Source of the DNA: Calditrichia bacterium
GTDB taxonomy: Bacteria > Calditrichota > Calditrichia > RBG-13-44-9 > J075
DNA length: 64,000 nucleotides
Assembly: GCA_050633245.1 (NCBI GenBank)
Contig: JBOEGD010000001.1
Coordinates: forward strand, 32,001-96,000
Reading direction: 5' to 3'
Shown: positions 975 through 51,931 of the stretch, one piece after another
Position numbering within the stretch: position 1 is the stretch's first letter
How the letters are laid out: each line of letters starts with the position of its first letter
The notes under the pieces: generated by a model
The model's database searches: none
What the model was told of the DNA's origin: nothing
Seen by the model: only the letters and a program-made list of their open reading frames with translations
Position numbers and translations under genes: made by a program

Positions 975-2540
975 ATGGCGACAAAACCCCGCTACAGCAT
1001 TGGCATTTTCGATGAGGGTACCGTTCTGCAGGTTGTATGCCTGTTGAAAAAGGGTAACGATATAAAAGTCGTCGATGCGGAAGTATATAAACTTGCCGGA
1101 CGTCTCGAGTCTGTCGATGTCGGTGAAGATTCCATTCTGCATCACGCAAGTGTGATGACAGATATGTCTGAACCGGTAGAGCTGAATAACGCTGCCGCCG
1201 CAAATGGCAGTATTCAGATTGATAATTATCCGGACAACCTGGCCGACCAGAATCTGTTTATCCTGCGCGAAATTTTGAGTAAGTATTCGCACAAGAAATA
1301 CAATATCGCAATCAGCCTTTCCGAACCTCAAATTTACTATACCACCTTCACTGAAGATTGGGGTATGGATGGCGATGAGCTGGCCGACAAAGTTATCGAA
1401 GAACTTTCCGTTTCGCATCCCAATCGCCAGCGTCTTAAAGATGATGACTTTGAACTGTTGCGCATGTCTGATGGAAGACTGCTTACCATCATTCGCGACT
1501 CTACGCTGAAGGTAATTAATCTTCTTGAAAGCGTACAAAAAGGCATTGTTAAGAAGATCTCGTTCCTTGAAAGCGCTGAAATTTCGCTGGTCAATCTTGT
1601 AAAAGAAATCTATCGCTTTAAGCGTGGGCAAATAAGTTTGATTGTGTACGTTGGTCGCGATTATAGTCGACTGATTTTTATGCGTGGTAATCTGATTTAC
1701 AGCATATCGCATTTAATCGAAGCGGGCCTCGATTCAGGGAATATTGCAAATACGATTTATAGCCGGGTTCTGCTGGAGCAAGATAATCTGCAGCTTCCGA
1801 AAATCAACAATGTGATCCTGTCCGGTGAAGCGCACGAGGCCAATCTTGCAGACTTCCTGCGCCGCAATCTTTCCGGAAATATTCATATCGAATATATCAA
1901 TTTTCAGAAGTTTGGTGTTCCCGGTATGGAGTCGGTGCTTTCGCGCTTTAGTGTGGCTATCGGGTCGGCACTTCGTGCTCTGGAGACGGAGAATGAATTT
2001 TTCTATGACGTCGATTTAATGCCGCAAAAGCTGCATGATAGTCGTAAAGGCGGACGCTTTGGCGCATTGGGTTGGGTTGCGATGATCTTTATTGCCATCA
2101 TGACCTGCTTCGCAACCATTAGCGCACATAAGCAGCTTTCTGAACTGGGCGATATCCAAAAGAAGAATGAGTTTCAGCAGGCTGAACTCGATGAGCTCAA
2201 TCGCGTGGAAGAACGAATTAACACCGAAAAAGCAAAGCTCACAAACTACGATAAAGCGCTGGTTATTATCGACTCACTCATGATTGGGGCAAATACCTGG
2301 AGTAACTTCCTGGCCGACCTTACCGAGACCACGCAGAGAATTGGTGGCATTTGGGTATCTGAAGTCAGCTTTGAGCCTCAAAAAAGCAAGGTGAAATTAA
2401 AGGGATATTCAACCGGACGAGAACGAATTCCGCAATTTTCCAAAGCCTTTAATGACGCTACGCTAAAGGTGGTAGAGGTTAAAGAAAGAGACGGAAAACG
2501 GCTCTATTCCTTTCATGTAGAAACAATTATAAATAAGTAA
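975..2540 (+). CDS. Type IV pilus assembly protein, apparent PilM-PilN fusion
   Basis: N-terminal actin-like PilM features (LIVYVGRDYSRLIF, NVILSGEA, FSVAIGSALR, VDLMP), then a TM helix, a coiled coil and a PilN-like domain (WSNFLADL..IWVSEV..VKLKGYS). Lies between pilT and the secretin. Confidence 0.7.
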   Translation: MATKPRYSIGIFDEGTVLQVVCLLKKGNDIKVVDAEVYKLAGRLESVDVGEDSILHHASVMTDMSEPVELNNAAAANGSIQIDNYPDNLADQNLFILREILSKYSHKKYNIAISLSEPQIYYTTFTEDWGMDGDELADKVIEELSVSHPNRQRLKDDDFELLRMSDGRLLTIIRDSTLKVINLLESVQKGIVKKISFLESAEISLVNLVKEIYRFKRGQISLIVYVGRDYSRLIFMRGNLIYSISHLIEAGLDSGNIANTIYSRVLLEQDNLQLPKINNVILSGEAHEANLADFLRRNLSGNIHIEYINFQKFGVPGMESVLSRFSVAIGSALRALETENEFFYDVDLMPQKLHDSRKGGRFGALGWVAMIFIAIMTCFATISAHKQLSELGDIQKKNEFQQAELDELNRVEERINTEKAKLTNYDKALVIIDSLMIGANTWSNFLADLTETTQRIGGIWVSEVSFEPQKSKVKLKGYSTGRERIPQFSKAFNDATLKVVEVKERDGKRLYSFHVETIINK

Positions 2541-2555
2541 ACGGGAGATGAACGC

Positions 2556-3482
2556 GTGTTTTCTGAAATGACACCAAAGGTTAAAAATGCCGTGATTACC
2601 GGTGCTGTTCTGTTGTTGGTTACGCTGATTTGCGGCTATCTGGTCCTTTTTTATCTCCCGGGCAGAATCGATAATGCGCACTCGTTAAATGAGTCGCTGA
2701 AAACGAAGATCTCGTCGCTTCGCGAAATCGGTAAGGAATATTACCACGTTCAGGAGCTGCTGCAGCAAAAAGAAGAAAAGCTGCTGGTAATGAATAAGGT
2801 GATTAACAGTGAGGTTACACCCGCTGATACCTATGAATATCTAAACTCACTTCTCGATTATTCCGGATTTGTGGATTTCGATATGCGATTTCAGGGAAGC
2901 AAAGATTTACAAAGCTATGGCTATAATGTGTATCAGATCAAAGGCCAGGGAGATTTTGATCGTATCTATAAGTTCATCAGCTATATCGAACGAGGACCGC
3001 AGATATATCGCATTAAGAAAATGAGCCTGCGTGCCCGCAATGCCGACAAGTTTGTTGGCGAGGAACCGGAGATACCGTTTAACATGCAGGTTTGGGCATA
3101 TTATGCCAATCTGGAAGATCTTCCTGCGCCACGTATTAGTCTGGACGGCGTAACAATTGATCAGATTAAGAATCCGTTCAGCGCTTCAATGGCCGGTGTG
3201 CAAATAGCGCCGAGAAAGCGCAAACGCTCGGGGAACACCTCTCGAACACGACAGGCTCCCAAGGCTCCGGCTAACCCAAGAGGTTTGGTGGAAGTTGGTA
3301 AAGCCAAATTGAAGGCTGTTATGTTGGGTCGGGCGATGATTGAAGATCACAAGGGAAAAACGCATATGCTTCGTGAGGGTGATGAGGTGTTTTTGGGGGC
3401 AATTTCAAAAATCGACCAGACAAATAACAGGGTCGAAATTAAACTCAATGACGGCAGTAGTCACGTTCTGACTATGTATTAA
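2556..3482 (+). CDS. Type IV pilus assembly protein, apparent PilO-PilP fusion
   Basis: N-terminal TM and coiled coil, PilO-like YQIKGQGDFDRIYKFISYIE, then NPF and a PilP/GspC-HR-like C-terminus (LKAVM..RAMIED..GKTHMLREGDEV..GAISKI). Confidence 0.65.
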   Translation: MFSEMTPKVKNAVITGAVLLLVTLICGYLVLFYLPGRIDNAHSLNESLKTKISSLREIGKEYYHVQELLQQKEEKLLVMNKVINSEVTPADTYEYLNSLLDYSGFVDFDMRFQGSKDLQSYGYNVYQIKGQGDFDRIYKFISYIERGPQIYRIKKMSLRARNADKFVGEEPEIPFNMQVWAYYANLEDLPAPRISLDGVTIDQIKNPFSASMAGVQIAPRKRKRSGNTSRTRQAPKAPANPRGLVEVGKAKLKAVMLGRAMIEDHKGKTHMLREGDEVFLGAISKIDQTNNRVEIKLNDGSSHVLTMY

Positions 3483-10070: not shown

Positions 10071-12038
10071 CTAATCTTCTTGAATCAATGTCAGGGCATC
10101 CTCTGCTTTTTCAAGCATGGCAGCAGCAGATATCTGCTCTCCAAGTGCTTTCTGCATCCAAACCTGCGGAGCAAGGCAGCCCAGTTTACACATTCGCTCC
10201 ATTTCCCGCGCCAGATTACGCTTTTTCAAATAACTTTCAATTTGAAAAGCAATAATATGACCAATTGCATAGTCTGGTATATACATACCGCAGTAAAGTA
10301 TGTGAGAATAGATCGCGAGAATATGTTGGTTCTTCGAACCAAAAAGCGGGGTAAAATAGGTGTTCCAAATGTCCGCTGAAAGCATAAGAACCGCCTCTTT
10401 AAGTGCTTCAGGTCCAGCTTCTGGATTCTCGTACATCCAGCGCCAAATTCGCATGTCGAGCAGTGAAACGCCTGCAATTTCCAGGGTTTGCCATACAGTG
10501 TGCAACGTTTCAGATGCTTCTGATAGTACATCGTCTTTTGATAAGCCAAGTACCTGTAGATCTCTGCCTTGAAACACAAAGGCAAAGGCCTCAGTGAATG
10601 CGGTGTTTGGTACCCCCTCCAGCGTATAATAATCAATGTCGTTCATTGAAAAAACCTGCTCAACACTATGACCCAGCTCGTGCATGGCGGTATTAAACCC
10701 CTTGTAGTCCATTCCGGAACTCGGCACTCTCGTTCGTAAATGAGCGGTATCCTTACGCATTTGCGCTCCCAGGGCATGGCCAGCTCCCCTGGCGGCGTCT
10801 ACTTTAATGTAGCGTTGAAGGTAGGTGGATTTGCGCTTTGAGAAACCCAGCCCATGAAGAATATCAGACAGGCCTTTTTCAAAAGACTTTGTGTCGGAAA
10901 ATGCTTTCTGCACTTGGGCATCCAATTCTAATTCTGATGTACTTCCACTTGCGGCAAACCCGGAATACCAGATGTCAAAAGGTTCCAGTTTACGCCCCAT
11001 GCGTTTTCGAATCAAATCTGCAATTCGAGATAAGACCGGCGCATCCAGCACGCTGTGCAATAGCGCCTCAACGTTCTTTTCAGAAATCTCGCGGTTTTGC
11101 TTAAAACGACGATCTATCAAAGAAGGGGCCGAGGGCGTGAACGCATCCAGTTGTCGTTCAGCTTCAAAGGTAGACCATAAACAGGAATAACGGCGATTTT
11201 TCTCCGGGGAATCGTCTGCTGTGTGTCCCTGGTGCGGAGAAAGTTTATTTGAGTCGGGCTGCCAGTCTGCATTGGGATTGTTAATTGCCCCCTGTGGAAT
11301 TTCCTGTGAAATAATACGCTGCATGACTTTCTCAATCAGCTTTTGCTTTTCAAGTCCGTCCGGCTCAGCATACTGAGCCTTGATCTCGTCTCGCAGTCCC
11401 CAGTGACTAATTAGTTTCATCTCTTTCGGGAAAACACGTTTTCCGGATTTGTTAAGCAAATTGTGCATGTAAATATTATAGGAGTACACGTAGTCTTCTG
11501 CTGCTGCGTAAATGCTGGTGCGATGTTGTTTCACATGGCCGGGAATTCGTTCATCGAATCGGTCGGCCAATCTGGCATCGGCCCAAACATGTCGCTCCCA
11601 GGTCAAACCATCGCGATTTTTCTCTTCCAGCGTATAAAGTGGAAAGTTTAGAAGAGCAACAAATGCCAGGCGGGCTTTGAATAAATCTTCCTGGATATGT
11701 GCAAATACATCGAAATTGGCGAAAAGAGAATCTACTGGCTGCATCTCACCGGTGTCGACATGTAGTGCCCAGTTTAGTTCGCGATAGGTGCGGTGAAAGT
11801 TGCCGTATATCGACTCCAGATGTGACTGAAATCGATCGCGTAATCGGGTTAGCTTTTCCGAGTCGGAAATGAAATGCTGTTGGCAAAACTCATCGAATGT
11901 TTGATTATCTCCATCATCATCAGACCAGCGTGCTGCGACCTGACGAACGCCGCGATCTATTCGTGATTTCTGCCCTTTACCATGTGTGTTGATCAGTGAC
12001 TCTATTGTCTGGCGGGTGGCTGCAACAATACTGCTCAT
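10071..12038 (-). CDS. Uncharacterised M3/M32-like zinc metallopeptidase (gluzincin)
   Basis: HELGH zinc motif, downstream TEAFA glutamate, and H..Y.PDYAIG. Start placed at MSSIV (GAGG RBS). Confidence 0.65.
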   Translation of the reverse strand: MSSIVAATRQTIESLINTHGKGQKSRIDRGVRQVAARWSDDDGDNQTFDEFCQQHFISDSEKLTRLRDRFQSHLESIYGNFHRTYRELNWALHVDTGEMQPVDSLFANFDVFAHIQEDLFKARLAFVALLNFPLYTLEEKNRDGLTWERHVWADARLADRFDERIPGHVKQHRTSIYAAAEDYVYSYNIYMHNLLNKSGKRVFPKEMKLISHWGLRDEIKAQYAEPDGLEKQKLIEKVMQRIISQEIPQGAINNPNADWQPDSNKLSPHQGHTADDSPEKNRRYSCLWSTFEAERQLDAFTPSAPSLIDRRFKQNREISEKNVEALLHSVLDAPVLSRIADLIRKRMGRKLEPFDIWYSGFAASGSTSELELDAQVQKAFSDTKSFEKGLSDILHGLGFSKRKSTYLQRYIKVDAARGAGHALGAQMRKDTAHLRTRVPSSGMDYKGFNTAMHELGHSVEQVFSMNDIDYYTLEGVPNTAFTEAFAFVFQGRDLQVLGLSKDDVLSEASETLHTVWQTLEIAGVSLLDMRIWRWMYENPEAGPEALKEAVLMLSADIWNTYFTPLFGSKNQHILAIYSHILYCGMYIPDYAIGHIIAFQIESYLKKRNLAREMERMCKLGCLAPQVWMQKALGEQISAAAMLEKAEDALTLIQED

Positions 12039-16249: not shown

Positions 16250-18037
16250 ATGAAAAGAGCAATTTTCACCGCATTTCTTGCCGCGTTCGTTGCATGCGCT
16301 GCGCCCGATTCGCTAAGTCAAAAAACCGTTCAGACTTTTTTAGACGATTATAACACTGAATTCCAGAGTTTGTATTATGCCTCGGCAGAAGCAGAATGGA
16401 AGTCTAATACTTACATAGTTGAAGGCGATGAAGAAACAGAGGCTGCAACAAAATCTGCTAATGAAGCATTTGCCTCGTTTACCGGAAGCAAAGAAAACAT
16501 AGAGAAAGCTACGATTTTTCTAAAGGCCAGAAAGGAGTTGACTCCGCTTCAGGTTAAGCAGCTTGAGAGTATCCTGTATACCGCCGCAAATAATCCGCAA
16601 ACTGTTCCAGCGCTGGTTAAGCAGCGCATTGAGGCAGAGGCTAAGCAAACCAGCAAGCTATATGGCTTTCCGTTTAAGTTAAATGAAAAAGATATCACAA
16701 CAGGCGGACTCGACCGCATACTCCGCGAAGGCAAAAAGCTTGATGAGCGTCTCGCGGCGTGGGAAGCAAGCAAAGAAGTTGGAACTGTGCTAAAAGACGG
16801 CTTACAGAATTTGCGCAAGCTGCGTAATGAAACGGTAAAAGCTCTGGGCTATAGTGACTACTTCAGCTATCAGGTTTCAGACTATGGAATGACAACTAAA
16901 GAAATGATGGAAATGAATCAGCGTTTTCTTCAGGAAATTCGTCCGCTTTTTCGCGAACTCCATACCTATGCGAGATATGAATTAGCGAAGCGCTACGGTG
17001 CTCAGGAGGTGCCGGAGTATCTCCCGGCACATTGGCTGCCAAACCGCTGGGGGCAGGATTGGAGCTCGATGATCACTGTAGAAGGCCTGGATCTCAACGG
17101 TGCGCTTAAAGACAAAAGTCCCGAATGGATTGTTCGTGAAGGCGAAGAATTTTACAAAAGCATTGGGCTGGGGCCATTACCAAAAAGCTTCTATGAGAAG
17201 TCTGATATGTATCCGCTTCCAGAAGGCACAGACTATAAGAAAAATAATCATGCTTCGGCATGGCACATGAATTTGGAAAATGATATTCGTTGTTTGATGA
17301 GCGTCGAGCCGACAGCGGATTATTATGAAACGGTTCATCACGAGTTGGGACATATTTATTACTATATCGCATATACCAATCCGGATGTGCCACTGTTACT
17401 GCGTGGTGGTGCGAATCGCGCGTATCATGAAGGTGTTGGAAGCTTGCTTGGCTTGGCAGCAATGCAAAAGCCGTTTTTGGTTGGACGTGGTTTAATTGCT
17501 GAGGATAGTAAGACCGATGAACTACGCACTTTGTTGCGTGAGGCGTTAAACTATATCGTATTTATGCCATTCTCATCAGGTGTAATGACAGAATTTGAGT
17601 ACGAGCTTTACTCCAATAATCTTCCAGTTGATCAATACAATGCGAAGTGGTGGGAGCTGAAGAAGAAACATCAGGGAATTGTAGCGCCTTCTGGTCGTGG
17701 AGAGGAATATTGTGATGCCGCCTCGAAAACACACATCAACAACGACGCTGCGCAATATTATGACTATGCGCTTTCCTATGTGTTGTTGTTTCAGTTACAC
17801 GATCATATCTCGCGCAATATTTTAAAAAGCAACCCACGCGCAACCAACTATTATGGAAATAAAGAAGTTGGTTCCTTCCTGCAGTCTATTCTTTCAAAGG
17901 GTGCTAGTGAGGATTGGCGCGAGTTGATGAAGGAGACTCTTGGTGAAGAACTAAGTGCCAGTGCAATGCTTACCTATTTCGAGCCGTTGACTGAATATCT
18001 TAAAGAGCAAAATAAGGGTCGTAAGCATACCCTGTAA
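16250..18037 (+). CDS. M2-family peptidyl-dipeptidase (ACE-like), probable lipoprotein
   Basis: PAHWLPNRWGQDW, HASAW, HHELGH, GAN.AYHEGVG. Start MKRAIF..FVAC with lipobox. Confidence 0.88.
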   Translation: MKRAIFTAFLAAFVACAAPDSLSQKTVQTFLDDYNTEFQSLYYASAEAEWKSNTYIVEGDEETEAATKSANEAFASFTGSKENIEKATIFLKARKELTPLQVKQLESILYTAANNPQTVPALVKQRIEAEAKQTSKLYGFPFKLNEKDITTGGLDRILREGKKLDERLAAWEASKEVGTVLKDGLQNLRKLRNETVKALGYSDYFSYQVSDYGMTTKEMMEMNQRFLQEIRPLFRELHTYARYELAKRYGAQEVPEYLPAHWLPNRWGQDWSSMITVEGLDLNGALKDKSPEWIVREGEEFYKSIGLGPLPKSFYEKSDMYPLPEGTDYKKNNHASAWHMNLENDIRCLMSVEPTADYYETVHHELGHIYYYIAYTNPDVPLLLRGGANRAYHEGVGSLLGLAAMQKPFLVGRGLIAEDSKTDELRTLLREALNYIVFMPFSSGVMTEFEYELYSNNLPVDQYNAKWWELKKKHQGIVAPSGRGEEYCDAASKTHINNDAAQYYDYALSYVLLFQLHDHISRNILKSNPRATNYYGNKEVGSFLQSILSKGASEDWRELMKETLGEELSASAMLTYFEPLTEYLKEQNKGRKHTL

Positions 18038-18059
18038 GTTGCAATATAGCTAAAATCGT

Positions 18060-18117
18060 AAAGCCCCGGCCAGCTCTGAATCGGATTACTCCGTCAGATT
18101 GACCGGGGCTTTTTTTT
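18060..18117. terminator. Rho-independent terminator between convergent operons
   Basis: AAAGCCCCGG...CCGGGGCTTT long hairpin followed by a T-run. Confidence 0.8.
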
Positions 18118-18152
18118 GCCCTTAGCAATTCAACAGGTTGGAAGGCAGCTAA

Positions 18153-18566
18153 TTACGAAATACTCCTTTCGACGGACCTCGGCACTTCCTGTGAATAGAT
18201 GCCAATCGCGTTACCTTCCGGATCTTCAAACACTGCAAAATATCCCAAGTCTTTATGTAGAGCAGTAATAGGTGTAATTATTCTGCCACCGTGCTCTATA
18301 ATTCGGTTCAACAACACGTCCAGATCAGAACCAACAGAGATGTAAATAAGTGCCGGGTTTATCGGTTGCAGCAATCCCGATCGAAATAAGAGGGTTCCCA
18401 CATATCCTGAACGTTGAGTATGTGGAACCAGTGCTAAATGAAAGTTTCCATGCTGTTCGATTGACAATCGCCTCTGAAAAATACGAGAATAAAAGTCCAC
18501 TGCTTCATGAAAGCGTGAGACCGGAATCTCGAACCAGTGTTGTTGGCTATTCTTCTGCGTTAGCAA
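18153..18566 (-). CDS. VOC/glyoxalase-bleomycin resistance family protein
   Basis: HWFEIPV..AVDFYSRIF, LIYISV, GG.II.P, GYFAVFEDPEGNAIGI. TTG start with AAGGAA RBS. Confidence 0.85.
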   Translation of the reverse strand: MLTQKNSQQHWFEIPVSRFHEAVDFYSRIFQRRLSIEQHGNFHLALVPHTQRSGYVGTLLFRSGLLQPINPALIYISVGSDLDVLLNRIIEHGGRIITPITALHKDLGYFAVFEDPEGNAIGIYSQEVPRSVERSIS

Positions 18567-18623
18567 GTTGTATCTTCCTTCATAGCTATCCAGGTGATTA
18601 GGTTGCTCTAAGCAACGACGACA

Positions 18624-19625
18624 TTATTGTGTAGAAAGCACGGCCGGGCTTTTCTCCACCAGCTCGCGAGGATTGACTTTTTGTGCCCCAATCAGCTCTG
18701 ACTTAATGCGTTGACGGATTTGTTCTTGCCGCATGGCGACTGTTTCTTCAGCTTCGACCTTTAATGCTTCGGCACTTAGTGGCTGTTCCATGCTGGCAAT
18801 GGCATCCTGCTCACAGAAGTAGGTAGCACGCAATACGTCTGCCATGCGTCCATACGGGCCGCGAATATCGGCTTGCTGTAGATATTTCTCGATCAGACTT
18901 TGCGCATATCGCTTCGTCATTCTTCGCGCACCATAGCGACCGTTAACGAGAAATAAGTCTGAGCCCTTTTGCTTACGCTTTTCCAGGTAGAGGCTCAACA
19001 GCGTGAGAACATTATCACTGAGAACGACTTCAGTGTCGGTGCGCCCAATAGCCGAAACGTCTATTTTAATAGATCCGCTTTCCAGTTTAAAACTACCGCA
19101 GGCTCGCGATTCAGTTAGCGAAGTAATGCTGCCGTCAGCAGAAACCGTAAGATCGACGGCTTCGCTGATAGAGCATCCGGTATCGAGAAGGAACTGCACC
19201 AACAGTGCAGAGGCGCGCTGTGTATCGTTGCGAACATTCTTGGCAATGAATTCATCTAGTGTCTCACGCTCGGGAGCGGAAAGTCCCTGAAGGCGTTCGA
19301 ATGGTGATTCTTCAAGTTTTATGATATCTGACAAACCAGGCTCAATAGAAAACCGGGCATCTTCCAGATAACGAAGAAAACTTTTGAGAGCTGGCAGGTA
19401 GCCTTTCTGAGCAGACTCGGAAAGACGAATACCTTCGTCAGTTTGCTCCCAGCGACTGTAGCGCCATTCATGGGCAATCTTCTCGGCATTGATTTGCTCA
19501 ATTTCCTTAATCTTGAGATTGCGGAAAATCATCGGAATATTTCCCATATAAGTAATGACACTATCCCGCGGTAGGCGTCGGTCCGTCTCCAGGTAACTTT
19601 TATATGCTTTTAAAACATCATACAT
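18624..19625 (-). CDS. Tyrosine-recombinase (XerC/D-like) fold protein lacking catalytic residues
   Basis: SAM-like N-domain (ALKSFLRYL). Box I reads DTGCSISE (Arg replaced by Ser); HxxR reads DVLR; no GH..T..Y box. Intact ORF with AAGGAG RBS. Confidence 0.75.
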   Translation of the reverse strand: MYDVLKAYKSYLETDRRLPRDSVITYMGNIPMIFRNLKIKEIEQINAEKIAHEWRYSRWEQTDEGIRLSESAQKGYLPALKSFLRYLEDARFSIEPGLSDIIKLEESPFERLQGLSAPERETLDEFIAKNVRNDTQRASALLVQFLLDTGCSISEAVDLTVSADGSITSLTESRACGSFKLESGSIKIDVSAIGRTDTEVVLSDNVLTLLSLYLEKRKQKGSDLFLVNGRYGARRMTKRYAQSLIEKYLQQADIRGPYGRMADVLRATYFCEQDAIASMEQPLSAEALKVEAEETVAMRQEQIRQRIKSELIGAQKVNPRELVEKSPAVLSTQ

Positions 19626-19646
19626 GAGAAAGCTCCTTTCCGTGGG

Positions 19647-20378
19647 TTAGTTGGCGCTGAACTTGGATTCGTGTCTGGCAAATTTTTCAGCATGGCCGAT
19701 TTCATTTAAATAGCTGCGAACGGTTTTAGAAGTAACGCCAACTGCGGATGCCATTTCCGTAAGAGTTGCATCCGGATGCGTTTGAATAAAGCGTTTGAGT
19801 TGACGCAGACGCTGCTCTTTGTTGCGGCTCTTTGTGGCATTGGCTGCACTGAGAGCGGGCTTGGATGCGCGAGGTGCATTGCGCGCGCCGCGCAGTTCAC
19901 CATATTGCGGCATTGGCATACGCATATTGCCACGACGCAGCTCCATGAGATTTCGGGTACCAATGGTATCGCACATAACGTAGGCGAGTACCGGAAAAAT
20001 AATCGTTCCGGCCAGCCACTGAACCCAGGTTAGTGGATCGAGCGTCATTAAAGCGCTATAGGTGAGCTGGATGTCGTAGGCAGACTTAAATCCCTCAGAC
20101 ATATTGGCAATACCCGAAGCAAAAAGAACGATACATGTAACCATGCGAACCATCCATCCGAGTTCACCATCCTGGATAAGCTCGTCTTTAAAGATGGACA
20201 TAGCAACAACACCCGCATCCACCGCAAATGCTGCTACTGCACCGAGAATTAAGCTATCGTAAAAGAACTGCGCCATAAAGGTTGTAGAATGCAGAAAGGT
20301 AGCACTGAGAATGCCGATGAGGCAGAGGGCACCGGCACGATATTTTACGAGTTCGCGAAAGCTAAACTTCGTTTGCAT
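19647..20378 (-). CDS. Membrane protein (DUF2637-like, 4 TM) with C-terminal HTH
   Basis: Four hydrophobic helices carrying AVD, S..AN and P motifs; basic linker; HTH ATLTEMASAVGVTSKTVRSYL. GGAGG RBS. Confidence 0.65.
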   Translation of the reverse strand: MQTKFSFRELVKYRAGALCLIGILSATFLHSTTFMAQFFYDSLILGAVAAFAVDAGVVAMSIFKDELIQDGELGWMVRMVTCIVLFASGIANMSEGFKSAYDIQLTYSALMTLDPLTWVQWLAGTIIFPVLAYVMCDTIGTRNLMELRRGNMRMPMPQYGELRGARNAPRASKPALSAANATKSRNKEQRLRQLKRFIQTHPDATLTEMASAVGVTSKTVRSYLNEIGHAEKFARHESKFSAN

Positions 20379-20622
20379 GCCGTCCTCCTTCCCTTCGGTT
20401 TAAACGCAGGTGCCGGGTTGCGGAATTATTAGCTCGGGGGAAAGGACAGCGATCGGCCTTAAAGCTGCGTGAGCGCGCAAACCCAAGCTGTAATAACAAC
20501 TCTTTGGGATCTATTGCCTGGCAGTCATCATTCTTCAAAATGCCCTTCTGGCTGTCAACCGACATGGATTGAATAAACTTTTGGGCCAGTGAACCGGTGT
20601 CCATAATTTGGATCTGTTGCAT
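20362..20622 (-). CDS. Small hypothetical protein, first gene of the putative SOS cassette
   Basis: ATG at 20622 with AAGGAG RBS; overlaps the start of the next gene. No recognisable family. Confidence 0.5.
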   Translation of the reverse strand: MQQIQIMDTGSLAQKFIQSMSVDSQKGILKNDDCQAIDPKELLLQLGFARSRSFKADRCPFPRANNSATRHLRLNRREGGRHANEV

Positions 20623-20683
20623 GATACACTCCTTGTGTTGTTGTGGGATACTGCATACCTGTGAATGCTTGCGTGGCAGAATA

Positions 20684-20765
20684 GTGAACAAACATTCACT
20701 TCTATCTTACGCAGGGAGTGGTTGGAATGCAAGAAAATTATTAAAAAATGTATACGTTTGTTCAC
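20684..20765 (-). promoter_or_regulatory. Sigma70-type promoter flanked by two putative LexA operators
   Basis: Minus-strand TTGCAT (20732-20727), 17 bp, TAAGAT (20709-20704). Boxes GTGAAC-AAAC-ATTCAC (20684-20699) and GTATAC-GTTT-GTTCAC (20750-20765). Same layout as the lexA promoter. Confidence 0.7.
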
Positions 20766-21164
20766 TATTTTTAAATGACTAAACTAAGTAGCTATTTTTA
20801 CTGTTTTTATAAGAATTGGCTTTGCGATTATGTTCACCTGTTTTATACAAGGAGCTCAAAAAAAGCCTATTTTTCCAGATGCTGCTTAAAAAACGAATCC
20901 TGGGAAAAAGGAGTATTCTCGATTTACACAAAGCAGCTGATTTCGTTGAATTGTACAGTAATTTCTTTGCGTTGATTTATTTGATTTCCGGCACGCAGTG
21001 CGGACTTAGAAAGCACTTAATTTATAGCGGACAGTAGGGAAGCTTTGTCCAAAGGAAGTAGACCGAAATGACCGTTTTCTTCTACGTATTTATGTCTTTT
21101 TCCTCATGACTACCGCATCATACAGGCATGTAATAAGCGTCTGTCAGCTGTATCTGCCGTACTG

Positions 21165-21284
21165 TGTCAGAATTATTTGCTTTAAATCGGACATTCTGAC
21201 ATGAAATCAATTTCAACAAAAAAACCGTTTGTTAAATAAAAACAAGAAGTTAAGTTTGTTTTTGATTGTGGCATCATTTTTGTC
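21165..21284 (+). promoter_or_regulatory. Possible sigma54-type promoter with upstream inverted repeat, serving the lon-dnaJ operon
   Basis: TGGCATCATTTTTGT at 21269-21283 (-12 element GT instead of GC). Inverted repeat TGTCAGAAT (21165-21173) / ATTCTGACA (21193-21201). Confidence 0.4.
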
Positions 21285-21319
21285 CTGTTTATCCGTGCAT
21301 GATAACAAGGAGGATGGAA

Positions 21320-21544
21320 ATGAATTTTGGAAGCTGGAGGAATGAAACGATAAATACTGCCGGGCGAGGAGTTTTGCTCTTTGGGCTGGCGTTGATGTTT
21401 ACCGGATTAGTTGTGTGGTTGGTACCGGAAATTCTGGTCGCCTTTATAGCAGCCTGTTTTTTTCTTGCCGGAGGCGCTTTGGCAATCTTCGGATGGCAGC
21501 TGCGTCGACAAAACAAACACAATATCCGGATTCATATACTGTAG
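21320..21544 (+). CDS. Small two-TM membrane protein preceding lon
   Basis: AAGGAGG RBS, two hydrophobic helices, 15 bp before lon. Confidence 0.7.
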   Translation: MNFGSWRNETINTAGRGVLLFGLALMFTGLVVWLVPEILVAFIAACFFLAGGALAIFGWQLRRQNKHNIRIHIL

Positions 21545-21559
21545 AAAGGATTAACCTTT

Positions 21560-23983
21560 ATGTCTATAAATGCAAAGCAGCTTAGCAGCATTGAAGTGCC
21601 AGACGAGCTGCCGATAATTTCTGTCAGGAATACGGTTTTTTTTCCAAACCAGTTTATTCCACTGGCCGTGGGAAGACCAAAGTCTCTGCGCCTGTTGGAA
21701 CACGCGATGGAAGAAGATCTTCTGGTAGGAATTCTTACTCAGGAAGATGGTTCTGTTGACGATCCGGATTCTGATGAACTCTATCAGATCGGTACTGTTG
21801 CAAAGGTGCTGAAAGTTATTGATCTGCCTGATGGCAGCAAGAGCGCCTTTATTCAGGGAATCTGTCGTTTTGAGATCGAAGAGTTTACGCAGGTCTCGCC
21901 ATTTTTTACCGCCAAGGTTCATCGCCTAGACGATGTAACACCGGATGATGAACTGAAGGTTCAGGCAATGGCTACAAATCTGCGCAATCTATTTCAGAAG
22001 GCATCTGATCTTGCTCCGGAAATAACTAATGAGCATCAAACGATGATTTCGAACCTGCACGACCCCGGAACGATCTGCGATCTTATTCTGGCATTTTCAA
22101 ACATCCATATGTATGAGAAGCAGGAAATTCTTGAGATTCTCGACGTTGAAGAGCGCTTGAAGCGTGGCACATATATTTTTAATAATTATCTGCAAACGCT
22201 GGAGCTTGGTAAAAAAATTCAGTCTGAAGTTCAGGACGAAATCAGCAAAGGTCAGCGCGAAATGTATTTGCGTCAGCAGCTGAAGGCGATCCAAAAAGAA
22301 CTGGGTGATACTGACGACGCTTCTGATATTAGCGAGTTGCGTAAACGTGTAGATGATGCGGAGCTGCCGGAAGAAGTGTTGAAGGTGACCGACAAAGAAA
22401 TCGATCGACTCGCTCGCATGCATCCTGCTTCTGCGGAATATACCGTAGCCCGCACCTATTTGGATTGGATTCTCGATCTGCCTTGGATGAAGAGCACTGA
22501 AGACAATCTGAATATCGATAGCGTAAGCGATCATCTCGAAGAAGATCATTTCGGCCTTGAAAAGGTGAAGAAGCGCGTTCTGGAATATCTGGCTGTTCGC
22601 AAGTTGAAAAATGATATGCGCGGACCCATTCTGTGTTTTGTTGGCCCTCCCGGAGTTGGTAAGACTTCGCTGGGACGCTCCATTGCGGATGCGCTGGGAC
22701 GTGGTTTCGTTCGCATGTCGCTTGGTGGCGTACGCGATGAAGCAGAAATTCGCGGTCATCGTCGTACCTATATTGGCGCGCTGCCAGGCCGGGTTATTCA
22801 GGGCATCAAACGTTCAAATTCTAATAATCCGGTATTTATGCTGGACGAGATTGATAAAATTGGTCAGGATTTTCGTGGTGATCCATCATCAGCCCTTCTT
22901 GAGGTGCTCGATCCGGAACAGAATAACTCGTTCAGCGATCACTATCTCGAAGTGCCGTTCGACCTGAGCAAGGTGATGTTTATCGCAACCGCAAATATGC
23001 AGGATACGATTATTCCGGCACTGCGCGATCGTATGGAAATCATAGATATTCCCAGCTACATTGAAGATGAGAAAGTTGCTATAGCCAAACGCTTTCTGCT
23101 ACCGAAGCAAATTGCAGAGCATGGTTTAACGGAAGAGTCCTTAATAATTTCTGATAAAGTGCTGCGTAAGGTGGTTAATTCGTATACTCGCGAAGCAGGT
23201 GTTCGTAATCTTGAAAGACAGATTGCAACCATCTGCCGAAGCGTTGCGAAGAAGGTCGCATCAGGAAAAACAACATCCACGCGCATTTCTCTGGATAACC
23301 TGGCTGAAATTCTCGGACCTATTCGCTTTTACAGCGACGTTGCCGAGCGGACAGATGAGCCGGGTATCGCAACCGGATTGTCGTGGACACCGATGGGCGG
23401 AGAGATTCTCTTCATTGAAGCGAATAAAATGCCCGGCAAAGGAAATCTGGTTCTGACTGGTCATCTTGGTGATGTAATGAAAGAGTCTGCTCGTGCTGCG
23501 CTCAGCTATATTCGCGCACGTGCCCATGAGTTTAATCTTGAGCCGGACTTTTATGATAAACATGATATTCACTTACACGTACCGGCTGGTGCGATTCCAA
23601 AGGATGGTCCTTCTGCCGGTGTAACGATATTCTCCGCATTGTTAAGCTTATTTACCGGGCAGAAAGTCTGCAATGATCTGGCAATGACGGGTGAGATTTC
23701 ACTACGTGGTAAGGTATTACCCGTAGGTGGAGTGAAGGAAAAAGTTCTCGCTGCTCATCGCGCTGGAATTAAGAAGGTTATTCTTCCGGAAAAGAACAAT
23801 GCTGATCTTGCAGAAGTTCCGCAGGCGGTGAAGGATGAGCTGGAATTTGTGTATGTGAAAAATATGAGAGAATTACTAAAGCACGCGCTCTGCGATGCTG
23901 AAGATACGCCAAAGAAAAGCGGTCCCAAGCGTTCATGGAATGATGATGCAATTAAAAAGGAAGTTGAAGACGAGGTGCGTTAA
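21560..23983 (+). CDS. lon: ATP-dependent protease La (Lon)
   Basis: LON N-domain, [23 protein letters not shown] (catalytic Ser), GGVKEK (Lys). Confidence 0.97.
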
Positions 23984-31890: not shown

Positions 31891-32070
31891 TATCAGAGAT
31901 AAAACGACGTTAATCAGCCATGCCCACAAAAACGACCCGAGTGAGCGGGCGCAACGTTGAAATCGAAAAGAATTGGCATAATTATGTGGGATGAATAATG
32001 ATCAACAGCCATATCCTTTGGCCGTATCACTTACAACACATAGAAAATATGCTTTTTTGGAGGCCTTACA

Positions 32071-49428: not shown

Positions 49429-50448
49429 TTAAATAGCAACTCGGAGATAGTGTGCCCAGTATCCCTGCCAGCGATTGTATTGATTAGCAATTAGTGAGAT
49501 ACGTTTGGGCAGACTGTCTCCGTAAAAATGTGTTGCTGCTGTTATAAGTCCTCTATCGGTTATGGGGGCGCGTTCCATTCGGCCGAGGCCCTGCAACAGA
49601 ATAAAGCTGGCTGCCCAGGTATCAAGGCCGTCGAGGCGCTGCAGCCAATCGCTTACATCGTCATAAGGTGCCTTAGTCAAAAACTCATCATCTATTTCGT
49701 GAAATGCGCGTGCTGCTGCAAGGAGTTGATTTGCCGCCCCATCATTAAATAAAAATGACGTGAGCTCTTTTGCCGATGTATAGGCCAGGGCGTCTGCTTC
49801 TGGGAAGGCGTAATATCGACGATTTTCCATATGAATTTGTCGACCAAAATGTCTCATAAGCCTGCGTTTTATCAGGCGAGCTTCAGCAACGCTGGTGTTA
49901 CCGGCAAGCAGCGCCCAGCAGGCACTCTCGAATGGCGTTAGGAACTTAACCTGATGAAAGCCATACAGCCGTTGGATAATCGGCTGAAAGTGAGGATCGC
50001 TATAGCCAATGCGATAAAAGGAGTTGAGATCATCCGTAAGGCTAAGAAAAAAGCGAATTCTATCTAGTGCCAGATGCCGTGTATTCTGAGAGATTGCTTT
50101 TTCTGAGAACAGCGTATACGATAAGAGCGGAGAATCCACCGTACCGGCTGAGGATACTTGAAAGAGAATAGCCTGATTATTTATGGAAATTGCTTTTAAC
50201 AGCGCTTTTCTTTCGGCGGACGTTTCCGAAAGTGCCAAACCGAGATAGGCCATAGATTGCTTAATATCGAATGGGGGAGTGGGGTAAAGGTTGCCGGTTT
50301 GTGAAAACAAAGGCTGAAGCGAGGTATGAAGCGAATCGCCATCGGCTGTTTGGTTGCCGACAGATGTGTTTACCTCGTTGTTTACGGCAGCAGCCCGTGC
50401 TGAGACAAGATTCAAGGTGGTCTGCTCATTCACAGAGCGTGTGCCCAT
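49429..50448 (-). CDS. alkA: DNA-3-methyladenine glycosylase II (AlkA/YfjP-like, HhH-GPD)
   Basis: PPFD, PFE..CWALL, HhH LDGLDTWAA, PITD aspartate, WQGYWAHYL. Confidence 0.8.
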   Translation of the reverse strand: MGTRSVNEQTTLNLVSARAAAVNNEVNTSVGNQTADGDSLHTSLQPLFSQTGNLYPTPPFDIKQSMAYLGLALSETSAERKALLKAISINNQAILFQVSSAGTVDSPLLSYTLFSEKAISQNTRHLALDRIRFFLSLTDDLNSFYRIGYSDPHFQPIIQRLYGFHQVKFLTPFESACWALLAGNTSVAEARLIKRRLMRHFGRQIHMENRRYYAFPEADALAYTSAKELTSFLFNDGAANQLLAAARAFHEIDDEFLTKAPYDDVSDWLQRLDGLDTWAASFILLQGLGRMERAPITDRGLITAATHFYGDSLPKRISLIANQYNRWQGYWAHYLRVAI

Positions 50449-50912
50449 CAGCTAATCTCCCGAATAACCTGTATAACCTTTCCGAGAACGGTAAAACCCG
50501 GTGTCTCGGGATCGATAATAAGAATGCGATCGGGTTCGTCCGTGCTTTCAAGGCGTATTCTGTTGTGGCTGTTTGAGTAGCGGCGTATCAGTACTTTCTC
50601 TCCCAACGTAACTGCAACAACATCACCATCAACGATATGCTCTCGCGATGCAATAACAGCATTGTCGCCTTTACAGAGCCCGGCGCCTTTCATGCTATTG
50701 TCTGAAACCAGCATGCTAAAACGCTTAAGCGACTCCAGACGATTGACGATATGTTTCGCCAAATCACCGGGAGTTCCATCCGTCTGTTCCATTAAAAATT
50801 CCACCCGAGGCAGCTGCAGAAATTCTTCATTCTGCACATCTGCCTGTTTTGGTGTCATTTTTTTCTTAGTGACCGGCGTTCCGGCCTTTGCTGAACGTTT
50901 AGTTAACCACAT
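50448..50912 (-). CDS. S24 (LexA/UmuD C-terminal) domain protein, probably protease-inactive
   Basis: VSDNSM.GAGL..GD, DGDVVAV, LIRRY (Lys replaced by Arg), VLGKV. No HTH and no Ala-Gly cleavage site. Confidence 0.75.
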   Translation of the reverse strand: MWLTKRSAKAGTPVTKKKMTPKQADVQNEEFLQLPRVEFLMEQTDGTPGDLAKHIVNRLESLKRFSMLVSDNSMKGAGLCKGDNAVIASREHIVDGDVVAVTLGEKVLIRRYSNSHNRIRLESTDEPDRILIIDPETPGFTVLGKVIQVIREIS

Positions 50913-51522
50913 TGCGAATCAATCCAACCACTTTGCCCTGAATATTCCAGTCGCCCTGCGGACGAATGTCTTCATAAGCCGGGTTTTCAGCTTTCAGATA
51001 GCGCTGGCCACCATCGTCAATTAGCCGTTTTACAGTAACTTCACCGTCAATTAATGCCACAACAATTTGGTTGGCTTCAGAAACGTTGGCAGACTTTACA
51101 ATGACCAAATCGCCATCCATAATACCGGCGTTGATCATAGAATCTCCACGAACGCGCAGCGTAAAGTAGTTACCTTCTGTCTTAATCAGATTACGCGGAA
51201 TACTTACATATTCATCAATGTTTTGTTCTGCAAGAATCGGGTGACCGGCAGACACCTGACCGATTAACGGCAGATTAATAATACTGCCCGGAGGTGGTGC
51301 CTGGTAGCGTTTATCTACAATGCGCAGACTGCGTGCCGTGGTTCCAGTCTTTTCGAGATAACCTTTGCGAATGAGCGCTTCAAGATGGCGAACAACACCA
51401 TGCTTGGATGCGATACCAAAATTATCTGCTATTTCCTGATAGCTCGGTGGATAGCCATACTCTGAAAGATATTCGGAAATAAATTTCAGCACTTCCTCCT
51501 GCCGATTGGTCAGGCCCTTCAT
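50899..51522 (-). CDS. lexA: SOS repressor LexA
   Basis: LTNRQEEVL, GYPPSYQEIA, HL.AL..KGY wHTH; VSAG cleavage site; GDSM Ser; TVKR Lys. GAAAGGA RBS before ATG at 51522. Confidence 0.95.
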   Translation of the reverse strand: MKGLTNRQEEVLKFISEYLSEYGYPPSYQEIADNFGIASKHGVVRHLEALIRKGYLEKTGTTARSLRIVDKRYQAPPPGSIINLPLIGQVSAGHPILAEQNIDEYVSIPRNLIKTEGNYFTLRVRGDSMINAGIMDGDLVIVKSANVSEANQIVVALIDGEVTVKRLIDDGGQRYLKAENPAYEDIRPQGDWNIQGKVVGLIRNVVN

Positions 51523-51592
51523 ATGTTGTGTCCTTTCGAATATTGCACATAGTGTATCGCCAGGCTGATAAAGTCCGTTGTTGGCAGCGGGC

Positions 51593-51675
51593 GTATACAT
51601 AAGTTCACTTTAACAATACAACGTAAAATAGGTATTGTCAAGAAAAAAAGTCAAAAAAGATGTAGATTTGTTCAC
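51593..51675 (-). promoter_or_regulatory. lexA promoter with putative SOS boxes
   Basis: Minus-strand TTGACA (51641-51636), 17 bp, TATTGT (51618-51613). GTATAC-ATAA-GTTCAC (51593-51608) lies over the predicted start site; weaker ATGTAG-ATTT-GTTCAC at 51660-51675. Confidence 0.75.
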
Positions 51676-51776
51676 TATTCTTGGCTGTGGAGTAAAAAAG
51701 AACGAAATAACGTATTTTATTGAAGTTAGCACTGGACTTAAAGCTGTTGATATTTGCATGGGGTTATCGTAATTTC

Positions 51777-51930
51777 AGAAGCGAGATGCAAGAAGCGAGA
51801 TGCAAGAAGCGAGATGCAAGAAGCAAGATGCAAGAGGTAAGAACCCGGAACCATTATTTTTCACTGTTCACTTTTCACTGTTCACTGTTCACTGTCATTC
51901 ATAATTCATCAATAATAACTCATCAATCAC
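51777..51930. repeat. Short tandem repeat cluster (7-bp-based units)
   Basis: AGAAGCGAGATGCA x4 (one variant), TTCACTG-like x5, degenerate TCATAAT-like units. Confidence 0.9.
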
Positions 51931-51931
51931 A

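Follow-up and report, generated by a model that had tools for sequence, protein, structure and literature searches.

We analyzed a 64,000-nucleotide stretch of the genome of a Calditrichia bacterium (positions 32,001–96,000 of contig JBOEGD010000001.1, assembly GCA_050633245.1; hereafter the window, to which coordinates refer unless another locus is named). On its reverse strand, at 18624–19625, lies a gene (P0001) whose 333-residue product can be assigned with confidence, from a structure model, the two-domain fold of a tyrosine recombinase. In fold it belongs with the tyrosine recombinases, but it lacks the catalytic residues that define them: five of the six catalytic positions are gone, and the C-terminal segment that should bear the nucleophilic Tyr has been replaced. 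The gene for this pseudo-recombinase is preceded by genes for a membrane protein and a small protein, and two boxes that flank the promoter of the three genes are best explained, from motif comparisons, as putative LexA operators that would place the operon in the SOS regulon. On balance, we lean slightly toward the view that the pseudo-recombinase is an SOS-induced protein that, without catalysis, binds either DNA or a recombinase partner, and that it works together with its two operon partners.

The open reading frame of the pseudo-recombinase begins with an ATG and is separated from the stop codon of the upstream membrane-protein gene by a 21-nucleotide (nt) spacer (19626–19646, reverse strand), in which the ribosome-binding site AAGGAG can be read directly 7 nt 5′ of the ATG. 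The protein consists of a core-binding domain (residues ~1–110), a remnant of the catalytic domain (~111–262), and a long charged helical tail (263–333). In Pfam, Phage_int_SAM_1 (PF02899) matched residues 5–89 with 23.7 bits, above its cutoff of 22.3, and Phage_integrase (PF00589) matched with 19.6 bits, below its cutoff of 27.1, covering profile positions 20–124 of 172. The NCBIfam models for XerD, XerC, and XerA gave weak matches (3e-10 to 3e-7), the XerD match ending at profile position 231 of 290, and the scores were below the Xer equivalog level (XerD, 36 bits against a cutoff of 329.6; XerC, 29.9 against 335). When the sequence was searched singly against the PDB, only two chance matches were returned (E 0.15 and 0.51), neither of them to the recombinase-fold repressors MrpR or SroF, and the Protein Atlas leads were integrase-type clusters.

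The fold was confidently predicted. An AlphaFold2 model built from a 37-row alignment had a mean predicted local distance difference test score (pLDDT) of 91.9 and a predicted template modeling score of 0.77, and it placed residues 261–315 in one long helix. A Foldseek search with this model gave 47 PDB matches at E ≤ 1e-3, headed by XerA, XerH, IntI, and XerD with a probability of 1.00. Structural comparison (VIA) gave Z scores of 16.0 for XerH, 14.9 for XerA, and 14.4 for the XerD catalytic domain (root-mean-square deviation 2.7 over 146 residues), compared with 12.7, 11.5, and 11.3 for the repressors SroF, YopR, and MrpR. A preliminary description of the gene had proposed a full-length tyrosine-recombinase fold with an intact frame, an intact core-binding domain, and a strong ribosome-binding site, and each of these features was borne out: true recombinases lead the structural matches, XerD is among them, and the core-binding domain is the part that exceeds its Pfam cutoff.

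To our reading of the active site we brought an alignment of relatives. An exhaustive search of 1.84 billion representatives identified 42 relatives at E ≤ 1e-3; 36 of these were aligned with the pseudo-recombinase (alignment A1), and six fragments of 97–242 residues were excluded from the alignment and from the tree. The A1 profile matched the XerC-like 4a8e at 9.7e-30 and aligned column for column with the XerD motifs ATGLRVSE, GKGNKER, HVLRHAF, LLGHSD, and QIYTHV, and the catalytic columns are thereby fixed. In these columns, Arg-I is Ser152 (TGCSISE), the β-hairpin motif GKGxKxR has degenerated to AIGRTDTE, and His-II is Asp263. Arg-II is retained as Arg266, and the His that follows it is Ala267; the His/Trp-III column holds Val, and the Tyr column is a gap. 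No GHS...Y remnant was found 3′ of these motifs in any frame. The four motif calls of the preliminary description (Arg to Ser in TGCSISE, VSAIGRTD where GKG.K is expected, His to Asp with the Arg kept in ADVLRATY, and replacement of the GH..T..Y segment) were therefore all correct by the A1 catalytic columns.

The losses are shared by the orthologs. The rows of A1 fall into clade A (20 rows, including the pseudo-recombinase), a sister clade B (12 rows), and a Xer-like group (5 rows). Clade B retains Arg-I, His-II, Arg-II, and Tyr in 12 of 12 rows and His/Trp-III in 7 of 12, whereas clade A retains Arg-I in 1 of 20 rows, Arg-II in 14 of 20, and His-II, His/Trp-III, and Tyr in none. An insertion between the Arg-I helix and the hairpin (h.dG.I...SGdF) is common to clades A and B. 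In a maximum-likelihood tree, clade A forms one branch (98/97) that is sister to clade B (97/92), and the Xer-like rows are separate (98/99); as the clades were defined by their catalytic residues, the tree tests their clustering and not their independence. The residues that are invariant in clade A are M1, W59, G65, I66, E119, F225, and A241, and no conserved Tyr, Ser, Lys, or His takes the place of the lost residues, which argues against an active site rebuilt from other side chains. One clade A row (P0028, also found at 2323–3234 of locus L025) still has a GKGK hairpin, yet it lacks Arg-I, His-II, and Tyr; its lineage may be an intermediate in a stepwise loss of the active site.

The gene has been retained under selection. 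A copy without an internal stop is present in 14 of the 15 other genomes of the family Calditrichaceae, where NCBI annotates the orthologs as "hypothetical protein," and among 45 genomes from other families of the class only one has a relative, which is a clade B gene. The ratio of nonsynonymous to synonymous substitution rates (dN/dS, by the NG86 method) was 0.12, 0.11, 0.12, and 0.04 in four close ortholog pairs, which indicates purifying selection. In a comparison with a 78%-identical ortholog, for which dS is saturated and only dN is usable, dN rose from 0.049 in the core-binding domain to 0.164 in the catalytic remnant and to 0.481 in the tail, so that the core-binding domain is the most constrained part of the protein. 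Between genera, identity is about 40% for the pseudo-recombinase, compared with 75% for Lon, 67% for the M2 peptidase, and 62% for the membrane protein encoded nearby; judged by these comparisons, the pseudo-recombinase evolves fast but under constraint. Taken with the shared losses and the single clade, the intact frames and the low dN/dS uphold the earlier suggestion that this is a retained pseudo-enzyme and not a product of random decay.

The predicted transcription unit comprises three genes, of which the pseudo-recombinase gene is the last; this context does not figure in the preliminary description. The middle gene (P0002; 19647–20378, reverse strand) encodes a 243-residue membrane protein with about four transmembrane helices, a variable linker, and a C-terminal winged helix-turn-helix. 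Residues 190–236 gave weak Pfam matches to HTH_24, HTH_11, and DeoR-type families, all below cutoff, and the protein had a PHROG DNA-binding match at 7.5e-5; the Protein Atlas leads, at or below 0.90, were DUF2637/SpdB-like and phage helix-turn-helix proteins, and the structure model had a mean pLDDT of 58.3, too low for fold comparison. In an alignment of 13 rows (A4), mean column identity was 70% and the membrane part contained many invariant polar residues; most of the aligned orthologs end in (F/I/Y)S(A/K/R/S)N-COOH. The gene is present in 14 of the 15 other family genomes and in none of the 45 genomes of other families. It adjoins the pseudo-recombinase gene at 11 further loci, and in one genome the two genes occupy separate loci. 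The first gene is a small open reading frame of 86 codons (20362–20622, reverse strand) with an ATG at 20622 and an AAGGAG of its own, and its stop overlaps the start of the membrane-protein gene. Its product has no Pfam family match. In all 11 upstream regions examined, the same position holds a counterpart whose N terminus follows the pattern M..(F/I)Q(I/M)(L/M)D, and dN/dS was 0.17–0.24 in three close pairs. The order lon, small open reading frame, membrane helix-turn-helix gene, pseudo-recombinase gene, M2 peptidase gene is conserved across genera.

The promoter of the operon is of the σ70 type (20704–20732, reverse strand), with a −35 hexamer TTGCAT (20732–20727), a 17-nt spacer, and a −10 hexamer TAAGAT (20709–20704). 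It is flanked by two boxes of LexA type. The upstream box, TAGTGAACAAACGTATAC (20750–20767, reverse strand), lies 17 nt upstream of the −35 hexamer, and the downstream box, TAGTGAACAAACATTCAC (20682–20699), lies on the opposite (forward) strand, 4 nt after the −10 hexamer. Together, the boxes (TAGTGAACAAAC...) form a perfect 14-nt inverted repeat with arms 62 nt apart. The exact 14-mer occurs only twice in the 6.35-Mb genome, both times at this promoter, and a search for paired boxes that allowed one mismatch per arm added three sites in the same genome. The layout of box, −35, 17 nt, −10, 14–15 nt, and box fits 10 of 12 genomes, and among these ten the spacer is always 17 nt and the −35 hexamer is the consensus TTGACA in nine. 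An operon box scoring at least 16 was found in all 12 genomes and two boxes in 10 of them; in the two genomes outside the layout, the matrix matches scored 20.9 and 16.6. With a matrix made from eight sites of the bacterium's own genome, the upstream and downstream boxes scored 25.3 and 24.7, and the same matrix found the genes for a UvrD-family helicase and a DnaE-type polymerase, neither of which was in the training set. An Rfam scan of 18000–21700 at E ≤ 1 gave no match.

A degenerate search with the box matched the uvrA promoter, and this prompted a test of whether the boxes are LexA sites. The window contains a lexA gene (50899–51600, or to 51677 with its boxes; reverse strand) with matches to LexA_DNA_bind (1.6e-21) and Peptidase_S24 (4e-35), whose product is the presumed trans-acting repressor. 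Its orthologs align from residue 14–27 onward, and the true start of lexA is probably about 25 codons inside the listed open reading frame. The two lexA boxes (51593–51610 and 51660–51677, as read in the lexA promoter) surround a promoter that has the same layout as that of the operon: box, TTGACA, 17 nt, TATTGT, box. Two boxes are also found at recA, and the uvrA promoter likewise carries a box. Of 13 other genomes of the family, 11 have boxes 5′ of lexA, and the two genomes that lack them belong to the genus with the most divergent operon boxes.

To avoid circularity, we trained a second matrix solely on 17 sites from the lexA promoters of other genomes and scanned the bacterium's own genome with it. 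Among the 56 matches, the two lexA boxes ranked 1 and 2, the upstream box of the operon ranked 3, uvrA ranked 4, a paralogous pseudo-recombinase gene ranked 5, and recA ranked 10; the downstream box of the operon ranked 28 with a score of 13.5, and the DnaE-type polymerase and UvrD-family helicase genes ranked 33 and 34. Because a matrix that had seen only lexA promoters ranks the upstream box third in the genome, LexA binding is the best explanation for the boxes, which would make them LexA operators and bring the operon into the SOS regulon. We had also considered that the boxes might be operators of the pseudo-recombinase itself, or an invertible or RNA element; these ideas were dropped, as the same motif and layout recur at the lexA, recA, uvrA, UvrD-family, and DnaE-type genes. 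No paper was found when full texts were searched for "Calditrichaeota" in combination with "LexA," and the passages searched of a paper on Bacteroidetes LexA (PMC8565304) do not mention LexA of the Calditrichota phylum.

These results suggest the following model. The pseudo-recombinase would be the dead descendant of a phage-type (Cre/Xer-like) tyrosine recombinase that became fixed in the chromosome of the Calditrichaceae ancestor and was kept by purifying selection. It would be translated from the last cistron of the operon, after the small protein and the membrane protein, whose winged helix would face the cytoplasm. In undamaged cells, LexA would keep the operon off through the two boxes, of which one lies about 20 nt upstream of the −35 hexamer and the other covers the start of transcription. 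Upon DNA damage, RecA-stimulated cleavage of LexA would derepress the operon together with lexA, recA, uvrA, and the genes for the UvrD-family helicase and the DnaE-type polymerase, and the pseudo-recombinase would then act without chemistry. By analogy, its intact core-binding domain and the remaining half of the clamp would grip a recombinase partner or DNA, the latter at a site or as a branched intermediate; that the core-binding domain is under the strongest constraint fits a binding role. The protein might also be short-lived. A C-terminal Ala, mostly within ...(V/I/A)A, is found in 16 of the 20 clade A representatives, in none of 12 clade B rows, and in none of 5 Xer-like rows. This tail resembles C-terminal degrons of the ClpX type and, in most orthologs, would mark the protein for later removal, as would suit a transient SOS effector.

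Several observations weigh against this model. The downstream box is only a modest match to the independent matrix, and LexA binding is deduced from motifs. The pseudo-recombinase evolves much faster than its neighbors (~40% identity between genera, against 62%–75%). In clade A, the core-binding domain carries a mean net charge of −1.7, compared with +2.5 in clade B and +7.4 in the Xer-like proteins, and the catalytic-domain remnant carries one of +3.5, compared with +7.9 and +9.4. These values, and the acidic character of the pseudo-recombinase itself (isoelectric point 5.6), weaken the case that clade A proteins bind DNA. Finally, the ...VA tail is missing from the pseudo-recombinase and its two nearest orthologs, whose C termini read STQ, PVS, and LVS and which have a longer charged helix in its place, and thus proteolytic reset as stated above cannot apply to the pseudo-recombinase.

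Other roles can be envisaged for the protein. Like MrpR, it could be a transcription factor with sequence specificity that uses the inverted boxes to repress its own operon and also its paralogs. Proteins with a recombinase fold do act as phage repressors (PMC10516654), three of them were matched by our model in VIA, the exact 14-mer is confined to the operon promoter, and related boxes are found at pseudo-recombinase loci that lack the membrane partner (L002 and L013) and in the reverse arrangement (L022, L026, and L027). Against this stands the recurrence of the motif and its two-box layout at lexA itself, as well as at the recA, uvrA, UvrD-family, and DnaE-type genes. The rank of the upstream box with a matrix built on lexA alone means that LexA accounts for the boxes with no further factor. 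The acidity of the protein also speaks against such a role, which we consider quite unlikely. The regulator envisaged in the preliminary description is complicated in the same way, since the only conserved cis-elements of the locus appear to be explained by LexA and the protein is acidic. The same description had offered a dominant-negative inhibitor as an option. As a dead copy made at the SOS stage, the pseudo-recombinase could co-assemble or compete with active phage-type recombinases or with XerCD, and so block cyclization or resolution of a phage genome or delay the resolution of chromosome dimers. The sister clade B is catalytically intact and includes a member encoded in a prophage, SOS timing coincides with prophage induction, several genomes carry paralogs, and fast evolution between genera and a highly variable C-terminal tail are in keeping with such a contest. 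However, the pseudo-recombinase query found no clade B recombinase in the bacterium's own genome, both matches being clade A, and the region after Arg-II, which mediates contacts in trans in active recombinases, is exactly the part that has been replaced. We consider a decoy role unlikely.

A third idea is that the membrane protein and the small protein act at the envelope in an SOS checkpoint that delays division or segregation, with the pseudo-recombinase holding DNA there as a tether. The three cistrons overlap or are closely spaced and are conserved in 11 of 11 regions, the membrane domain has its many invariant polar residues, and SOS checkpoints that small membrane proteins enforce and proteases reset are known; for example, YneB of Bacillus subtilis is described as SOS-induced in an operon with YneA, a membrane division inhibitor (PMC6051672). 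However, paralogous pseudo-recombinases occur alone, with no membrane partner, and yet retain the LexA box, and the argument is one of analogy; we regard this role as quite unlikely. It is very improbable that the gene is a decaying integrase pseudogene or encodes an active recombinase with a rebuilt active site. The weak sequence matches to the catalytic domain and the rapid evolution relative to the neighbors could be read in this way, but in 14 of the 15 other family genomes every principal copy has an intact frame, purifying selection is evident, the model is confident, and the lost residues have no conserved replacement. The binder made under SOS control thus remains the reading that we prefer. 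A more specific version, in which the dead phage recombinase is an SOS-timed effector made with the winged-helix membrane protein and the small protein, and either poisons or outcompetes Cre-like recombinases during prophage induction or serves as a DNA-damage checkpoint that clamps recombination intermediates or chromosomal sites at the membrane, is speculative, and we would give it a low probability.

Comparison with known systems places the pseudo-recombinase nearest to the class of exapted recombinase scaffolds represented by MrpR/SroF and TnsF, and it is a member of neither by homology or by context. Like it, MrpR (YopR, of phage SPβ) and SroF (of phage φ3T) are two-domain proteins of recombinase fold whose catalytic residues are substituted and whose role is noncatalytic: MrpR is reported to bind a 15-bp repeated element and repress (PMC10516654), and SroF to bind DNA through its integrase-like fold and to be inactivated by Sar, a LexA-controlled antirepressor, which provides a link to SOS (10.1101/2025.11.27.690993). 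The structural matches to these repressors extend over ~226–230 residues with Z scores of 11.3–12.7, and true recombinases score higher (Z 14–16). MrpR and SroF are phage-encoded, constitutive master repressors that are inactivated upon SOS, whereas the pseudo-recombinase is chromosomal and apparently vertically inherited and is itself preceded by LexA-type boxes. It also differs from them in lacking the whole C-terminal third, in having membrane-protein and small-protein partners, in showing no detected sequence similarity to them, and in its location, which is not an SPβ-like prophage but a conserved chromosomal site between lon and the M2 peptidase gene. TnsF, of Tn6022-like Tn7 transposons, selects the transposon target (PMC10293859); it is encoded in a transposon, targets comM, and has N-terminal zinc fingers and tandem core-binding domains. 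In the pseudo-recombinase, Pfam detected no zinc-finger domain, and its neighbors are housekeeping genes and not Tn7-like genes (TnsABC/TniQ).

YneB is a homolog of resolvases, with the unrelated serine-recombinase fold, and ynzC is the third gene of the yneA operon. The yneA-yneB-ynzC operon resembles the one described here in being an SOS-induced unit that joins a membrane protein with other small proteins (PMC6051672), but the analogy is functional only, with no homology between the genes. [quoted passage not shown] XerC/XerD, XerA, XerH, and Cre are the best structural and profile matches and share the core-binding domain and the catalytic scaffold up to the Arg-II helix, beyond which the resemblance to these active enzymes ends.

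The relatives of the pseudo-recombinase point to its origin. The sole clade B gene for which context is available (genome G038) lies in a prophage, flanked on one side by genes for a replication protein, a DnaB-type helicase, and a second small recombinase and on the other by terminase, portal, and head genes. The simplest history is that a Cre/Xer-like phage recombinase was domesticated in the Calditrichaceae ancestor and that catalysis was then lost. About 130 nt 3′ of the active clade B recombinase gene, just before the terminase genes, this prophage contains a near-perfect palindrome, TGTTCCGATTATA-GA-TATAAACGGAACA (10996–11023 of locus L029), which can also be read as 10-8-10 and is a candidate lox/dif-like site of the clade B recombinase. 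The bacterium's own genome has six other Phage_integrase genes above cutoff, two of them of Xer size (306 and 311 residues), and thus the pseudo-recombinase is not the cell's Xer. Paralogs occur in several genomes, some of which have extra or split copies; in the bacterium's own genome, the lone paralog lies between glnA and a glnE-like gene. Also present there are two tyrosine recombinases of 190 residues (C20:169341–169949 and C2:40478–41086) that have the R and GKGNK motifs and differ at one position within the first 80 residues. Each gene has a perfect GAAC-AAAA-GTTC palindrome 22–39 nt before its start and an 11-nt inverted repeat around its promoter, and these genes may be SOS-controlled or invertible elements.

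Further features were noted around the partners and around lexA. Between the upstream box of the operon and an open reading frame for a 92-residue transmembrane protein (21266–21544) that precedes lon, the ~500 nt at 20770–21265 are A+T-rich (G+C 0.35–0.38) and contain no convincing open reading frame. Locus L028 (G007:C14:66500–75000) has two more membrane winged-helix genes near genes for primase-like, XRE-type helix-turn-helix, and phage-type integrase proteins, and no LexA-type box scoring at least 14; the membrane protein family thus seems to circulate on mobile elements too. At L026 and L027 (G003:C52 and G011:C3), membrane-protein paralogs of 209–215 residues consist of the transmembrane part and a basic tail, with no winged helix; they adjoin a gene for a 513–521-residue transporter-like membrane protein and have a LexA-type box just upstream (scores 24.2 and 23.5). 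In the region 49429–51931, lexA is followed on the same strand by genes for a 154-residue Peptidase_S24 protein and a 339-residue protein with no Pfam family. On the 5′ side of the lexA boxes are tandem CAGTGAA heptamers (~5 copies, near 51860–51900) and a tandem array of a 14-nt unit of the CTTGCATCTCGCTT type.

To our knowledge, the reuse of dead tyrosine recombinases for DNA recognition is limited to a handful of examples, among phage repressors and in the target selector of a transposon. What is new here is the combination of a chromosomal, family-wide dead recombinase, winged-helix membrane and small-protein partners, and LexA-type control. The gene differs from the precedents in that it appears to be vertically inherited, has two dedicated partners, and is preceded by one of the strongest LexA-type sites of the genome. 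If our interpretation is correct, the core response to DNA damage in a little-studied phylum includes a pseudo-enzyme, and the analysis would supply a candidate LexA motif and a first set of SOS genes for the Calditrichaceae. The operon would also be a tractable setting in which to explore what a recombinase scaffold is capable of when chemistry is absent, and a role as a poison or competitor, or as a clamp at the membrane, would represent a class of SOS function, unknown until now, that builds on a pseudo-enzyme.

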